5,364 nt of DNA from a virus (Duplodnaviria > Heunggongvirae > Uroviricota > Caudoviricetes): IMG/VR virus record IMGVR_UViG_2875713109_000006, one strand, 5' to 3'. Below the pieces are notes generated by a model. The model was not told the origin of the DNA and did no database searches. It was given only the letters and a program-made list of their open reading frames with translations. How positions within the stretch are numbered: position 1 is the first letter of the stretch; the number at the start of each line of letters is the position of its first letter. The position numbers were made by a program, and so were the translations under genes. Shown here piece after piece: positions 401 through 5,364 of the stretch.

Positions 401-554
401 ATGTGGCTACCTCAGAGCGTCGCTGTGAATTTGATCTTATTGCGGTGTCGCAGTGGTTACCCGCGATCGTTTTTTCGCAGTTCGGCCTTTTTCTGGCCAG
501 CCACTACTGCATCAAGGTATTTCGGCGCAATCTTTATCGTGTGGATTTTGATTG

Positions 555-1259
555 TCATTTTGCACCGCCTTCTGCAATAGCAAGGATCACACCAAGCGTC
601 AGATTGCAGTCATACAACGCTCTATGTGGTGCACCTTCTCCGGCATCAACCTTAAGCGCCGCCGCTGCATCCACAAGTCGTTTCCAGCGGGTTTTACGGC
701 GTACAACATCCCATTCACCGTTATAATCTGCGTACAGCTGCATTACGCACTCAGGGGTGCATATATCCTCATGCTGTTCATAATCCCCACCAGACTGGCG
801 CAACATACGCGCATCAAATTTTGCGTTATATGCGACCCAGCCTTTACTTGTTAACTCCAATACTTTCGGCAGAATTTCCAACCATGATGGTGCATTAGCA
901 ACCATTTCATCCGTAATACCGTGAATTGCAGTTGCCGCTTCTGGAATAGATTTCGATGGCTTGACCAGCGTATTAAGCAAAACGTAACCAGCACAGTCGA
1001 TGATCGAAATTTCTACAATTTCATCATCAAATCCTAGTCCTGTGGTTTCTGTATCAAGAATGACAAAGCCCTTATCAATCCAGCGCTTTGCTATCTGTTG
1101 TTCGGTTTCCAGACGGTCGGAAAAATACAGAGACTGATCGGTGATCCTCCAACACTGGCGAATCACATCGCGCAACGAAGCCCCTTCTTTAGCTCTGGCA
1201 CCAGAAACCACCCCACCCAAAATGGCCGAAAAAAGTTGATTGCGAGTGCTCAATTCCAT
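555..1259 (-). CDS. DnaQ-like (DEDDh) 3'-5' exonuclease with an N-terminal extension of roughly 60 aa
   Basis: The translation contains the three exonuclease motifs in the right order: [10 protein letters not shown] (Exo I), [10 protein letters not shown] (Exo II), HRALYDCNL (Exo III-epsilon, H-x-A-x-x-D). ATG at 1259..1257 is preceded by AAAGGCGG. The ORF track starts at an in-frame TTG at 1280, which would add 7 aa. The gene overlaps the stop of the upstream 77-aa ORF by 10 nt. Confidence 0.8.
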
Positions 1260-1483
1260 GCCGCACCGCCTTTGCTGCAAATCGCTGCGGCTTCTTCGCG
1301 GATTAACTCAACGATTTCCGTTGCGCTTAAACCTTCATTGGCCGCATGAGTGGCCAGCTTATCCAGACGGGTGGAACACAGATCAGCTGCTGCGGCTTTA
1401 CCTTCCTGCGTGGCTTTGGTGAGCATGGCCAGCAGGTCGGTGCCTGATTTTGTTGCGGGTAAATCCTGACGTGTCATGTGCAT
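1250..1483 (-). CDS. Hypothetical small alanine-rich protein (77 aa)
   Basis: ORF with ATG at 1483..1481 preceded by AAGGAAA at about 7 nt spacing. Its stop overlaps the exonuclease start, suggesting translational coupling. No motif recognised. Confidence 0.55.
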   Translation of the reverse strand: MHMTRQDLPATKSGTDLLAMLTKATQEGKAAAADLCSTRLDKLATHAANEGLSATEIVELIREEAAAICSKGGAAWN

Positions 1484-1512
1484 TTTGGTTTCCTTAAGGC
1501 AAAAGAATCCCC

Positions 1513-1531
1513 GGCCACTTGAACCGTGGCC
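1513..1531 (-). other. Stem-loop GGCCAC / 7-nt loop / GTGGCC in the 67-nt gap between orf133 and orf77
   Basis: Perfect 6-bp GC-rich inverted repeat. On the - strand transcript it is followed by GGGGAUUCUUUUG, an imperfect U-tract. It is the only sizeable intergenic gap in the otherwise tightly packed leftward operon. Confidence 0.3.
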
Positions 1532-1550
1532 AAAAAATTCAGGCTGTTAA

Positions 1551-1952
1551 TTAGTGAAAAGTGGGTTGTACTGTGGCGGCTGAGTAGTTCGGTGCCGGAA
1601 TCAGGTGCAGCTCATAGGTTATCCGCCACCACTCCTGGATCAGCGCTTTTATCTCGCCAACGCCCAACGCCCCGGCTGTATAGAAAATTGCACGAATCCC
1701 CGCCAGCGCTTCTATCTGGGCTTCTTTGCTTTTCGCTTCGCGATATACGCAGCACCAGAAAGCAGCATTGATCGCCAGCCAGTGACGCGGATTTGTCATG
1801 TGTTCAGTGTCGTTGAAGAAGAACGGATGCAAAGCGATACGCCCATTTTTACTGGTGCTTTTCTCTGCAAACGCTAATGCGTAGTTATGCGGGACGCCCC
1901 ACACAGCCAGCTCTGCCCCTAGTGATTTACCTTCAACCGAAATAATGGACAT
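1551..1952 (-). CDS. Hypothetical protein (133 aa), translationally coupled to the upstream gene
   Basis: Its ATG (1952..1950) overlaps the TGA of the 142-aa ORF by one base (TGATG), with AGGGGAA 8 nt upstream. No motif recognised. Position is syntenic with the fil/dhr region of phage 186, but identity is unproven. Confidence 0.6.
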   Translation of the reverse strand: MSIISVEGKSLGAELAVWGVPHNYALAFAEKSTSKNGRIALHPFFFNDTEHMTNPRHWLAINAAFWCCVYREAKSKEAQIEALAGIRAIFYTAGALGVGEIKALIQEWWRITYELHLIPAPNYSAATVQPTFH

Positions 1953-2380
1953 CAGTGATTCCCCTGTTGCTGTAACTTCTGGACAATATGAGGTGCAACC
2001 ACCATCTGCACCCCGCTGCTGCTATAAATTGGATGAACCTTCTTGATTGGGCGGTTCGCGGTACGTTTCGAAAAATCGCTGTCACGTAAACTGCCGAAAC
2101 CTTCAAACGTTAACCGCGCCCGTGAAATGCCCTGGCGCAGTTGAATCATGTCCCGATAGCCCAGGCGTTCATAAAGCTCACGCCAGCAGCACTTGCTTAA
2201 ATGGGCTTTAAATGCCCCGGTACCAGAAGTAACCGCAGCAGCATGAAGTACTACGCCGCGCCACTCCGGTGTCAAGTTGTCCCACCATTCAGCGGCCTCG
2301 CTGCTTTCGCTGAAGTATTTGCGGCGGATCTGTTTTAAATGCTCCAGCCCGCGCTTTTGCTGTTCCTGGCTAATCGCCAT
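1952..2380 (-). CDS. Hypothetical protein (142 aa)
   Basis: ORF with ATG at 2380..2378, starting 9 nt after the stop of the 57-aa ORF. Same strand and tight spacing as the flanking early genes. No motif recognised. Confidence 0.6.
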   Translation of the reverse strand: MAISQEQQKRGLEHLKQIRRKYFSESSEAAEWWDNLTPEWRGVVLHAAAVTSGTGAFKAHLSKCCWRELYERLGYRDMIQLRQGISRARLTFEGFGSLRDSDFSKRTANRPIKKVHPIYSSSGVQMVVAPHIVQKLQQQGNH

Positions 2381-2389
2381 AGCGTCCCC

Positions 2390-2563
2390 CTATAGCCCCA
2401 TCAGACGACGCCACCACGGGCGACGCGGCTGCTGGCCATTGAATTTGTACATGTGGCCAGGGTTCCAGCGCTGACCGTTCGGCAGTTCAATCCAGCCCGT
2501 TGAACCACTGGGCAATTGCATGGCCGGTGATTCGTTTTTCAGGTAAGTGACAAACGCTTTCAT
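2390..2563 (-). CDS. Hypothetical small basic protein (57 aa: MKAFVTYLKNESPAMQLPSGSTGWIELPNGQRWNPGHMYKFNGQQPRRPWWRRLMGL)
   Basis: Not in the supplied ORF track (below its length cut-off); translated by hand. ATG at 2563..2561 is preceded by GAGGGAGA at 3 nt spacing and lies 9 nt after the cII stop. Stop TAG at 2392..2390. Confidence 0.45.
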   Translation of the reverse strand: MKAFVTYLKNESPAMQLPSGSTGWIELPNGQRWNPGHMYKFNGQQPRRPWWRRLMGL

Positions 2564-2572
2564 GGTTCTCCC

Positions 2573-3076
2573 TCACATCAGGCCGGTGGCGTTGGTTGTG
2601 ACCAGATCCACCGCAGCGGCCAAAACCGGCGCAGAGTGAATACGGCTTTCAACGGTATAAGCCAGCACGGATAAGCTACGGATTGCATCTCGGGCACGAT
2701 CCAGAATTTGAGTACGGCGGGCGGCGGTCATATGACCAGCTGATACGGCTTCCCCAGCAATCGCGCCCACACTGGCTGTGGCGCTCAGTGCACACAGTTG
2801 CATGTTGCCTTCTGTTGCATTGTTCACCGGTACGGATGGAAGGCAGTTAATCTGCCCCAGCATCCCATCCAGTAAACGCGCATCTTCGGTGTAATCCGTG
2901 ATAGCCAAAAGTTCATCACAGGTCAGGCGGTGCGGTTGCGCTGGGTTCAGTTTATTACGCAGGATCTGTGGCCTCATACCAACGGCAGCGGCCACATCTT
3001 CAAGATTGTGCTCAATTGCAAATGCTCGGCAAGCCGCATCAAAGTGCGCATGTTTAGAGGTCTGGTAATCAAACAT
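2573..3076 (-). CDS. cII: CII-like transcriptional activator (167 aa), phage 186 CII family
   Basis: N-terminus MFDYQTSKHAHFDAACRAFA and the internal LRNKLNP-QPH segment match my recollection of phage 186 CII, which is of similar length. Strong RBS GGGAGAGG 6 nt upstream of the ATG. Located directly downstream of the Apl-like gene, as in 186. Confidence 0.75.
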   Translation of the reverse strand: MFDYQTSKHAHFDAACRAFAIEHNLEDVAAAVGMRPQILRNKLNPAQPHRLTCDELLAITDYTEDARLLDGMLGQINCLPSVPVNNATEGNMQLCALSATASVGAIAGEAVSAGHMTAARRTQILDRARDAIRSLSVLAYTVESRIHSAPVLAAAVDLVTTNATGLM

Positions 3077-3106
3077 TGTTTGCCTCTCCCTAATCCGTAG
3101 GATGGA

Positions 3107-3328
3107 TTACGCTTTAAGCGAAATGTCACATTCGCTTAAAGCCTGAATAGTGAGCGCGGCCATGTTGACTTCGACCAGGCCTTTCTTCTGCTTACCCTTC
3201 GGCTTAATAGGTAATTTCCCGTATTCGATCAGGTTCCTGGCGGTTTCTTTGTTGGTACCAGTACGGCGGCAATACTCGTCTAAAGGCAGGTATGGCTCTG
3301 GGATGATGATTGTAATGTTCGGACGCAT
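3107..3328 (-). CDS. apl: Apl/Cox-like small HTH protein (excisionase / lytic-side repressor), 73 aa
   Basis: First gene of the leftward operon, divergent from the repressor gene. ATG at 3328..3326 is preceded by GGAG at 8 nt spacing. The N-terminus MRPNITIIIPEPYLPLDEYCRRTGTNKETARNLIEYGKLPI aligns in register with my recollection of the P2 Cox N-terminus. The ORF track extends it to a GTG at 3388 (93 aa); the true start is unresolved. Confidence 0.65.
   Translation of the reverse strand: MRPNITIIIPEPYLPLDEYCRRTGTNKETARNLIEYGKLPIKPKGKQKKGLVEVNMAALTIQALSECDISLKA
3111..3142. promoter_or_regulatory. Perfect 12-bp inverted repeat GCTTTAAGCGAA / 8-bp spacer / TTCGCTTAAAGC inside the last 11 codons of apl
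   Basis: Read directly: gctttaagcgaa-atgtcaca-ttcgcttaaagc. It encodes ALSECDISLKA on the - strand and is not followed by a T-tract on either strand, so it is not a terminator. It lies about 280 bp from the switch. Confidence 0.4.
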
Positions 3329-3447
3329 GAGGCAAACTCCATAAGTTAACCTGTACGGCAATACAGGGCTGTAACTGTCAATATTCACTTAAACCTACAA
3401 AGCGGAGTTTAAACTCACTCCGCGCAAGATTTCAAGGTAAAACTTTC
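3329..3447. promoter_or_regulatory. Divergent apl-cI intergenic region: presumed lysis/lysogeny switch with promoters and operators
   Basis: Contains (i) dyad CCTGTA-N6-TACAGG at 3350..3367; (ii) a perfect 12-bp palindrome GAGTTTAAACTC at 3405..3416 nested in GCGGAGT-N8-ACTCCGC (3402..3423); (iii) a candidate - strand promoter TTGAAA (3435..3430), 16-bp spacer, TTTAAA (3413..3408); (iv) a perfect TTGACA on the - strand (3381..3376) with no matching -10. Promoter assignments are by eye and uncertain. Confidence 0.5.
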
Positions 3448-4026
3448 GTGAATCTACAAATTGAGTTTTCTCATGGCGGAGCTGAGGTACTAGATAGAGT
3501 TATCCAAGCGTATGGATTCAACACAAAACTAGCCCTAGCCGAACATCTTGATATAGCAAGCAGCAGTCTGGCTAACCGGTATAAGAGGGATTTTTTTCCA
3601 GCTGATATCGTTGTTAGATGTATGGCTGAAACAGGAGCTACTCTGGAATGGCTTGCGACTGGACAAGGTAGAAAGTTTAACGATGACGAATTAGACATCA
3701 TGAAATTGCCACGCAAGAAGATTGTGGACGGAAAACTCTATGAGTCTGGTTTCCTAATGCTCGATAAGGTTACTTTTTTACCTGGCAAACCTTTACCGCA
3801 GAATCCTATCTGTGTGATTGATAACACAATGCAATACATTGTTGATCAACACTTTACTGAAGTTTATGACGATGTTTGGCTTGTCGAAGTTGAAGGTAAA
3901 ACCAGCGTTAGAACACTAACACGCATCCCTGTGGGAAAAGTTAGAGTAAGCGGCGTAGGTATGGCTTTTGACTGCGGTATTGACGATATAAAAATCATCG
4001 GCCGCATTGTTCTGACGATTGAATGA
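3448..4026 (+). CDS. cI: CI-type immunity repressor (192 aa), phage 186 CI family
   Basis: Length and N-terminal region (VLDRVIQAYGF...LDIASSSLANRY) match my recollection of 186 CI (192 aa). N-terminal HTH-like segment followed by a C-terminal domain. GTG start at 3448 with AAGGT about 10 nt upstream; there is no in-frame ATG near the N-terminus. Directly upstream of and co-oriented with int. Confidence 0.75.
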   Translation: MNLQIEFSHGGAEVLDRVIQAYGFNTKLALAEHLDIASSSLANRYKRDFFPADIVVRCMAETGATLEWLATGQGRKFNDDELDIMKLPRKKIVDGKLYESGFLMLDKVTFLPGKPLPQNPICVIDNTMQYIVDQHFTEVYDDVWLVEVEGKTSVRTLTRIPVGKVRVSGVGMAFDCGIDDIKIIGRIVLTIE

Positions 4027-4027
4027 A

Positions 4028-5068
4028 ATGAGTGTTCGTAAACTTCCGACAGGCGAATGGATCGCCGACTTCTACACCGTCAACCGTAGTAATGGTAAGA
4101 ACGGGAAGCGCATACGTAAAAAATTTGCCACGAAGGGGGAAGCCCTGGCATTTGAGAACCATACGCTTCAGAAAGTAGACAGTGCGCCCTGGCTGGGTGA
4201 AGGGAAGGACAAACGAACTTTAATAGACCTGATCACAATGTGGTATGAACGCCACGGAGTAGCTTTGCGCAATGGTCAAAAGCGCAAAGACGCTATGACC
4301 TGGGCGGCAGAGTGCATGGGATTCCCGCTAGCTACAGAGTTTAATGCCCAGCTGTTCACGGCCTACCGCGCAAAAAGGCTTGATGGGCATTATGCCCGCA
4401 CTAGCAGAGTATCCAAGGTTTCCCCGAAAACAATGAACCTTGAACATGCTTACTTCCTGGCTATGTTCAACGAGCTGAAACGAATCGGGGAATGGTCAGC
4501 CCCCAACCCACTGGAAAACGTCAGACAGTATCGTACTGATGAAACCGAAATGGCTTTCCTCACTGCTGAAGAAATTGAGCTGCTTTTGCTGGAATGCAAA
4601 CGAAGCAAAGTAAAATACTTGGAGCTAGTCGTAAAAATCTGTCTTGCGACCGGCGCAAGATGGAATGAAGCGGCAACGCTGAAAAGCTCTCAGATCGCAG
4701 GCGATAAAGTTACGTTCGTCAAAACCAAAGGGAAGCGCAACAGAACAATCCCCCTTGATGATGAACTTCTATCCGAATTGCCTGAAACGAAAGGCGCTCT
4801 GTTCCCCAAACCCTGCTATAACGCGTTCCGCTCTGCTTTGGAACGCGCAGGCATTGAACTCCCCTCCGGCCAGCTTACCCATGTACTGCGCCATACATTT
4901 GCCAGCCACTTTATGATGAACGGCGGGAACATTCTGGTTCTGCAAAAAATTCTCGGCCACGCTGACATCACTATGACAATGCGTTATGCCCATTTCGCCC
5001 CAAGCCACCTTGAAGATGCCGTGCGACTTAACCCCTTAAAATGTCGCAAAAATGTCGCGACAGCTTAG
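4028..5068 (+). CDS. int: Tyrosine recombinase / phage integrase, P2/186 Int family (346 aa)
   Basis: Catalytic signature present: LATGARWNEA (box I Arg), HVLRHTFASHF (His-x-x-Arg) and TMRYAHF (Tyr nucleophile). N-terminus resembles P2 Int. ATG at 4028 lies 1 nt after the cI stop TGA (4024..4026). The ORF track begins at an in-frame TTG at 4019, which would overlap cI by 8 nt. Confidence 0.9.
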   Translation: MSVRKLPTGEWIADFYTVNRSNGKNGKRIRKKFATKGEALAFENHTLQKVDSAPWLGEGKDKRTLIDLITMWYERHGVALRNGQKRKDAMTWAAECMGFPLATEFNAQLFTAYRAKRLDGHYARTSRVSKVSPKTMNLEHAYFLAMFNELKRIGEWSAPNPLENVRQYRTDETEMAFLTAEEIELLLLECKRSKVKYLELVVKICLATGARWNEAATLKSSQIAGDKVTFVKTKGKRNRTIPLDDELLSELPETKGALFPKPCYNAFRSALERAGIELPSGQLTHVLRHTFASHFMMNGGNILVLQKILGHADITMTMRYAHFAPSHLEDAVRLNPLKCRKNVATA

Positions 5069-5235
5069 AAATACTGCCGAATACTCACAGATATTAACTA
5101 ACGTAACTTATTGATAACACTGTAAGTTATTGTTTTTCGTAGATAGTTGATGCTTTATAATATAGCCTGTGCTATATCTGTATGTAATGCAATCATCCCT
5201 CAAGGATCGACGGGATTAGCAAGTCAGGAGGTCTT
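5069..5235. other. AT-rich spacer downstream of int; candidate att / prophage-end region
   Basis: In P2-like phages the attachment site lies just beyond the 3' end of int. The region holds direct repeats TAACTTATTG (5103..5112) and TAAGTTATTG (5123..5132) and AATACT (5070..5075, 5080..5085), plus a TATAAT hexamer at 5156..5161. No tRNA-like structure was seen and the core cannot be identified from the sequence alone. Confidence 0.3.
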
Positions 5236-5364
5236 ATGAATGAGTTCAAGAGGTGTATGCGCGTGTTTAGTCATTCTCCCTTTAAAGTACGGTTAATGCT
5301 GCTCTCTATGTTGTGCGATATGGTCAACAACAAACCGCAGCAAGATAAACCTTCCGATAAATAG
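5236..5364 (+). CDS. Small ORF (42 aa: MNEFKRCMRVFSHSPFKVRLMLLSMLCDMVNNKPQQDKPSDK), function unknown
   Basis: ATG at 5236 is preceded by a consensus AGGAGG (5226..5231) at 4 nt spacing. The TAG stop is the last three bases of the window. No motif recognised; it may be a host gene at the prophage junction or a phage moron. Confidence 0.4.
   Translation: MNEFKRCMRVFSHSPFKVRLMLLSMLCDMVNNKPQQDKPSDK

Follow-up and report, generated by a model that had tools for sequence, protein, structure and literature searches.

In phage P2 the genes cox, orf78 (encoding 56 amino acids, aa), B, a terminator and orf80 (a DUF2732 gene) follow one another in that order. The product of gene B (gpB) is annotated in the P2 GenBank record as essential for lagging-strand synthesis, has been listed among the helicase loaders (PMC12661323) and has been cited as an example of host-helicase hijacking (PMC4887207); it is among the least understood of the helicase loaders. 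In phage 186 the same interval, up to the terminator tR1, holds fil, whose overexpression blocks cell division according to a note in the 186 GenBank record, and dhr, whose 66-aa product inhibits host DNA replication. We report here on a 5,364-nucleotide stretch of DNA (IMG/VR virus record IMGVR_UViG_2875713109_000006; hereafter the window) in which three tightly coupled genes, encoding proteins of 57, 142 and 133 aa, occupy this interval, and in which the order is cII, 57-aa gene, 142-aa gene, 133-aa gene, terminator and DUF2732 gene. A preliminary description of the window had called all three genes ones of unknown function and had placed them in a variable accessory slot. We find that the trio forms a conserved core module within the early lytic operon and not such a slot, since the 57-aa protein can be assigned to the Fil family and the 142-aa protein to the remote relatives of P2 gpB, leaving only the 133-aa protein unassigned. 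Homology to characterised proteins is thus seen for two of the three (57 and 142 aa), and "unknown function" still describes the 133-aa protein, which has no detectable relative of known function.

The 142-aa protein is probably a remote homologue of P2 gpB

The 142-aa protein (isoelectric point, pI, 9.95) falls in phrog_33841, a PHROG without functional annotation, and it has no match in Pfam, NCBIfam, PADLOC or the Protein Data Bank (PDB). Yersinia phage vB_YenM_324, on which we found no paper in the literature, has in the same position a gene, gp07, that its depositors annotated as 'replication protein GpB', and the gp07 protein is 29% identical to the 142-aa protein (BLASTP E 1e-9). PHROG cross-hits tie both Yersinia gp07 and Vibrio phage PV94 gp08 to the P2 gpB family. 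When 1.84 billion representatives were searched exhaustively by HMMER with the profile of the 142-aa protein, there were only 37 hits, of which the useful ones were short B proteins of the Yersinia type; P0205 and P0215 were discarded as spurious, being repetitive proteins.

Profile-profile comparisons with hhalign connect these proteins to gpB in steps. The alignments compared were the enterobacterial 142-aa family (A1), the P2 gpB family (A3), the Yersinia-type relatives recovered by exhaustive HMMER search (A5), A1 together with the Yersinia-type members (A4), and a marine family (A6) made up of K139 Orf3, PV94 gp08, yong1 gp10, SMHB1 gp10 and C5a gp15. The enterobacterial family matches the Yersinia type at a probability of 99.7% (E 1e-25), the Yersinia type matches the marine family at 97.7% (E 2e-12; 97.3% and E 2e-11 when A4 is used), and the marine family matches gpB at 94.0% (E 1.4e-7). 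When all 42 short-B sequences are pooled, they match gpB over 80 columns at 92.9% (E 3.7e-7) and the N-terminal half of gpB at 94.7% (E 5.7e-8); the best E value among the controls, a reversed gpB alignment and 30 column-shuffled ones, was 0.036. The alignment register is constant in all comparisons (window, EWWDNLTPEWRGVVLHAAAV; PV94, KIYNAFSEKQRGMCCIAGGL; gpB, DYYNQMMERERLTVCFHAQL), and P2 gpB and Yersinia gp07 each score 33.6 bits against the hidden Markov model of the marine family. Profile-profile alignment gives the proteins a common core of roughly 75-90 residues, and the genes have in common their slot, after the switch genes and an open reading frame (ORF) of about 56 aa and before a terminator and a DUF2732 gene. 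On these grounds we judge it very probable that the 142-aa protein is homologous to P2 gpB (166 aa; PF26815, phrog_235).

Several observations weigh against this relationship or against carrying it over to function. Direct comparison without the intermediates is weak (A1 versus gpB, E 0.06; A4 versus gpB, E 5.9e-4), and because of this the case for gpB rests on transitivity and position. No curated gpB model matches the 142-aa family (precomputed PF26815; phrog_235, 37 members; NCBIfam); two fusion artefacts within the family carry unrelated capsid domains among their precomputed domains. The AlphaFold2 (AF2) model of the 142-aa protein, predicted to be helical, is mediocre (predicted local distance difference test score, pLDDT, 67.8), and fold searches of the PDB and BFVD with it came back empty. 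In the Foldseek search of BFVD the best E value was no lower than 0.49 and the protein's own family was missed too, so that this fold test is uninformative about the link to gpB; we found no solved structure of P2 B or of its short relatives. Finally, DnaB binding and the need for B in lagging-strand synthesis are established for P2 B alone in the GenBank note and in the passages of PMC12661323 and PMC4887207 that cite Odegrip et al. 2000. We describe the 142-aa protein as a predicted DnaB-helicase-engaging protein, an activity that we infer by extension from P2 B.

The 142-aa protein and its short relatives differ from gpB in architecture. Residues 35-86 of P2 gpB (gene B, P2 positions 2459-2959) match its own residues 97-151 (hhalign 78%, E 1.8e-5), and the short-B profile matches the N-terminal half of gpB strongly and the C-terminal half only at E 0.04. 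P2 gpB thus looks like a tandemly duplicated core of about 55 residues, and the 142-aa protein and the other short-B proteins carry a single copy of it. The tail of the 142-aa protein is also distinct from gpB; it is probably disordered and carries a conserved VQMVIAP motif. The marine short-B proteins (K139 Orf3, PV94 gp08, yong1 gp10; phrog_5349), homologous to both the 142-aa family and gpB, are encoded directly after cII, and differ from the 142-aa family in having about 35% identity to it or lower.

The 57-aa protein belongs to the Fil family

The 57-aa protein scores 38.5 bits (E 9.5e-10) against the Pfam model PF10893 Phage_186_Fil, whose gathering cut-off is 25, and it matches phrog_816, 'cell division inhibitor', over residues 4-56 (E 5e-8). 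Its RefSeq name is 'phage filamentation protein Fil family protein', and a search of the related loci with 186 Fil as query picks out its equivalents there (165 ORFs, E values down to 1e-8). Like 186 Fil it is small, very basic (pI 11.0) and encoded directly after cII. By these sequence matches it is a Fil-family protein and a predicted cell-division inhibitor. It differs from 186 Fil in length (57 versus 75 aa) and in its C-terminal part, and just the N-terminal 35 or so residues align: residues 1-37 correspond to positions 1-34 of the 56 in PF10893, and BLASTP against the N-terminus of 186 Fil finds 36% identity over 33 residues. The preliminary description had noted that fil and dhr stand at this position in 186; the first gene of the trio corresponds to fil, and the second has no similarity to dhr.

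Two C-terminal forms of Fil occur among close relatives (window 2390-2563; record L001, 4934-5161), one of 57 aa (the window, ESSI2_ev015) and one of 75 aa (ESSI2_ev129, ev040). Identity between them is limited to about the first 48 residues, and the longer form overlaps the start of the B-like gene. P2 orf78 (P2 positions 2292-2462) stands in the position of fil and is nearly the same length as the 57-aa form. We rejected Orf78 as a Fil homologue, as the two have just an N-terminal motif in common (LLRNESP versus YLKNESP) and the profile match is suggestive but not significant (hhalign E 0.02). A Salmonella enterica protein of 96 aa (P0187) joins the N-terminus of Fil to the middle of the 133-aa protein; this fusion probably arose when a deletion took out the B-like gene while the prophage was decaying.

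Gene structure and expression

The features of the window are collected in Table 1. The sizes of the three ORFs, the 9-nucleotide (nt) gaps, the TGATG overlap and the presence of a separate Shine-Dalgarno (SD) sequence for each gene are all as first described; each SD is purine-rich and stands 5-7 nt ahead of its ATG. RefSeq calls the same three coding sequences in Escherichia coli PSS-07 and in the intact prophage of strain EC101, and the homologue families of the 142- and 133-aa proteins extend to about 40-50% identity. All three ORFs are under purifying selection, with median ratios of nonsynonymous to synonymous substitution rates (dN/dS) against related loci of 0.15 (57 aa), 0.09 (142 aa) and 0.065 (133 aa), the last of these close to the value of 0.043 for cII. 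Given the RefSeq calls, a homologue family for each and the low dN/dS, we conclude that the three are real genes; they are co-transcribed. In 75 of 79 related loci the 142- and 133-aa genes likewise overlap by 1 nt. Antisense ORFs of 81 and 90 aa that lie opposite the 133-aa gene on the + strand (1526-1877) were regarded as shadow ORFs.

Table 1. Positions of genes and signals in the window
Feature	Position	Strand	Remarks
Integrase gene	4019-5068	+	
CI repressor gene	3448-4026	+	
Candidate early lytic promoter	3406-3435	-	TTGAAA-18 nt-TAAACT, between cI and apl; consensus match alone
apl/cox gene		-	between cI and cII
cII-type lysogeny activator gene	2573-3076	-	directly upstream of the three genes; Pfam Phage_CP76, E 1.3e-46; phrog_101, E 1.4e-44
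57-aa ORF	2390-2563	-	start 9 nt after cII stop; SD GAGGGAGAA
142-aa ORF	1952-2380	-	9-nt gap after 57-aa stop; SD AGGGGGA
133-aa ORF	1551-1952	-	base 1952 common to the 142-aa stop (CAC TGATG); SD AGGGGAA
Terminator-like hairpin	1508-1536 (whole element 1498-1536)	-	8-bp stem, 7-nt loop, then UUCUUUU; terminator scan, RNA fold
DUF2732 gene	1250-1483	-	P2 orf80 homologue, downstream boundary of the three genes; Pfam DUF2732, E 2.8e-12
DEDDh exonuclease gene	555-1280	-	
Truncated DUF3850 gene	457-558	-	pseudogene

Expression from the early lytic operon, as originally proposed, is supported and follows the arrangement of 186 and P2. The candidate promoter is the sole sigma-70-like site that we found on the - strand within 1200-3500; it lies just upstream of apl, at the position of phage 186 pR. 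The hairpin at the other end stands where 186 has tR1 and where P2 has a putative terminator after B according to the annotations of these phages, and in both of them the terminator is followed by the DUF2732 gene. The spacer between the 133-aa gene and the DUF2732 gene is 66-67 nt long in 77 of 80 loci; the RNA fold z-score of the whole 67-nt spacer in the window is just -1.08. The trio does follow cII directly, and what had been read as its other neighbor, the exonuclease gene, is separated from it by this hairpin and the DUF2732 gene.

The module is conserved and its interval is not a hotspot

All five genes of the array (cII, fil, the B-like gene, the 133-aa gene and the DUF2732 gene) are present in 140 of 151 related IMG/VR viral loci, and the slot is for this reason not variable within this clade, contrary to the earlier suggestion. 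Pairwise distances of Fil, the B-like protein and the 133-aa protein correlate with one another (Spearman 0.78-0.79) more closely than they do with those of cII or the DUF2732 protein (0.52-0.67), which indicates that the three genes travel as a block. Across the wider family the interval is filled in other ways, by fil and dhr in 186, by orf78 and B in P2 and by a B-like gene with other genes in Vibrio phages, and these alternatives represent slow replacement of modules and not the behavior of a hotspot.

An alternative to a role in replication is that the 142- and 133-aa proteins are an accessory pair, devoted to host takeover, anti-defence or exclusion and outside the replication machinery, that occupies the slot of 186 dhr. 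The pair does lie where 186 has dhr, following fil and preceding the terminator, and Dhr never occurs together with it in the 151 loci (we found no Dhr homologue in any of them); moreover neither family is found outside P2-like phages or has a functional annotation, and the cassette is rare in E. coli, being found in 24 of 5426 complete genomes (the annotation is alike in every record listed). Genes for counter-defence are usually patchy in their distribution, and an array that is invariant in 140 loci and under strong purifying selection is unlike that pattern. The homology of the 142-aa protein to gpB also speaks against an accessory pair, as does the fact that the documented variable, defence-bearing hotspot of the P2-like phages is a different locus, between gpA and gpQ (PMC9122126). 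None of the three proteins has a PADLOC hit (E <= 1), which is weak evidence on this point because PADLOC covers defence and not anti-defence. Dhr itself shows no sequence similarity to either protein, and we rejected Dhr homology for both families (hhalign probability below 0.5% in each case). We consider an accessory pair unlikely.

Somewhat less likely still, in our estimation, is that the core that the 142-aa protein has in common with gpB is a small helical module put to another use, such as that of a regulator or of an antitermination factor that carries early transcription past the tR1-like terminator. A small, basic protein that is predicted to be helical would suit such a role, and the 186 record notes that the terminators of this region are antiterminated in lytic growth; against it, P2 B, the sole relative to have been characterised, acts in replication.

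The 133-aa protein

The 133-aa protein is a member of phrog_3935 (E 2.5e-51). It has no match in Pfam, NCBIfam, PADLOC or the PDB, by sequence or by profile, and none by fold, and searches of PDB sequences with the 142- and 133-aa proteins singly, with their profiles and with a broadened 28-sequence profile gave nothing below E 0.08. Its AF2 model is confident (pLDDT 81.9; predicted template modelling score, pTM, 0.77) and shows a C-terminal part of four helices preceded by a small N-terminal unit with the order strand-helix-helix-strand-strand; as modelled, this is a confident predicted fold without a known relative. Weak matches to an HD domain recurred, and we rejected them as no conserved residues support such a domain. 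The invariant residues of the broad family are just M1, F28, W66, W108, W109 and H116, and, as the preliminary description had already observed, none of the three proteins of the trio shows a catalytic motif. There is also no relationship to P2 Orf81.

The 133-aa gene is found in P2-like phage and prophage contexts only, from E. coli to Yersinia and Vibrio. In a set of 71 divergent loci retrieved with a Yersinia-type query, where the short-B proteins are 33-99% identical to the Yersinia type, it lies directly downstream of the short-B gene in 69. Against a functional pairing of the two stand the Vibrio phages, in which one or two genes intervene between the B-like gene and the 133-aa gene, and SMHB1 and C5a, in which the short B-like gene is present and the 133-aa gene is missing, as it is from P2 and 186. 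The 133-aa protein is accordingly not an obligatory partner of the B-like protein, and homology evidence for what it does was absent from all searches.

The window differs from P2 in having the 133-aa gene between the B-like gene and the terminator, and it is very improbable that this gene supplies the second of the two gpB repeats, as if gpB had been split into the 142- and 133-aa proteins: gpB does look tandemly duplicated, the motif IRAIFYTAGAL of the 133-aa protein resembles RRTLFMHAGL of gpB and a terminal His is common in all three groups, but comparisons of the 133-aa protein with gpB, with its C-terminal half and with short-B are non-significant (E 0.06-0.33 over 14 columns or fewer, in the region of the motif), leading us to reject it as either a gpB C-terminal half or a short-B paralogue, and its model has an N-terminal alpha/beta part that is not predicted in gpB-like proteins.

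Histidine is the last residue in 42 of 45 non-redundant 133-aa family members, in 18 of 42 short-B proteins and in 19 of 27 gpB proteins, a further six of which have Asn at this place; the last codons concerned lie at 1551-1553 and 1952-1954 of the window. The terminal His is not explained by an overlapping downstream gene and may be a common C-terminal recognition determinant. In Vibrio phage K139 a match resembling the 133-aa protein lies at 3551-3960, in a frame other than that of the annotated orf5, and could be a frameshifted or mis-annotated homologue.

A proposed role for the module

We lean toward the view that the locus as a whole is a conserved early module of an ESSI2-like prophage that mediates interaction with the host in lytic growth and combines Fil, capture of DnaB by a gpB-like protein and a 133-aa protein coupled to the latter. 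The trio would form the promoter-proximal portion of the early lytic operon in a prophage of the 186/P2 type, with transcription running leftward from the cI-apl promoter and ending at the tR1-like terminator. By analogy to 186 Fil, the Fil-family protein would hold back division of the host cell in lytic growth. The 142-aa protein would bind host DnaB and bring it to the strand displaced by rolling-circle replication initiated by gpA, and lagging-strand synthesis would in consequence, we propose, be independent of the host loader. The 133-aa protein would be made in step with the 142-aa protein by way of the TGATG overlap and may act at the same step, either assisting the loader as a co-factor or modulating host replication proteins; for any such activity, as for DnaB binding by the 142-aa protein, we infer function from the setting of these genes and the relatives described above.

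A more specific version, to which we attach a rather small chance, makes the 133-aa protein a new kind of factor aimed at replication proteins which, paired with a minimal single-repeat DnaB loader, makes up a two-protein system for redirecting DnaB to the phage. Under one option the 133-aa protein would complete the loader and do the job of the second repeat of P2 gpB; under another it would antagonise the host loader or replisome, in a Dhr-like shut-off parallel to that by ORF104 of Staphylococcus aureus phage 77. In the latter phage a viral helicase loader, ORF013, is co-expressed with ORF104, an inhibitor of the host loader DnaI (PMC4887207). The likeness is one of concept alone, namely the coupling of a small phage-specific partner to the gene of a putative viral loader; no sequence relationship is expected, and we offer it as an analogy and not as evidence.

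These results are too unsurprising to alter current views of the biology of P2-like phages. They do give hundreds of 'hypothetical' proteins of enterobacterial prophages a tentative link to the P2 B family, and they suggest that P2 B derives by duplication from a smaller ancestral unit. A minimal single-repeat B protein with a constant partner gene would make a tractable system for the study of DnaB capture by a very small protein.

The prophage and its surroundings

The window is identical (100%) to positions 3,122,702-3,128,065 of the E. coli PSS-07 chromosome and contains the left end of a prophage of the P2-like type (Peduoviridae), integrated beside mntS. The nearest sequenced phages are the ESSI2-like Escherichia phages of the genus Quadragintavirus (about 93-95% identity). 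Strain EC101 carries the same prophage intact, with identical proteins under the same WP accessions. The PSS-07 prophage is a remnant, in which the DUF3850 gene is cut after codon 33 and everything beyond it is gone; the match to the intact EC101 prophage ends at about position 458, within this gene. The right end of the window (5236-5364, as well as about 5070-5235) is host DNA, the start of mntS, which places the prophage attachment site just upstream of mntS and accounts for the partial matches to the window in 5423 of 5426 E. coli genomes. The AT-rich left end adjoins PSS-07 genes whose products match ShosA (DprA-like; PADLOC E 2e-52) and ShosT (E 4.7e-10), beside which there is also a DUF6680 gene (record L002, 8956-12000, PSS-07); judged by these matches, the three genes are a predicted Shosta-like defence island between mntR and the prophage remnant.

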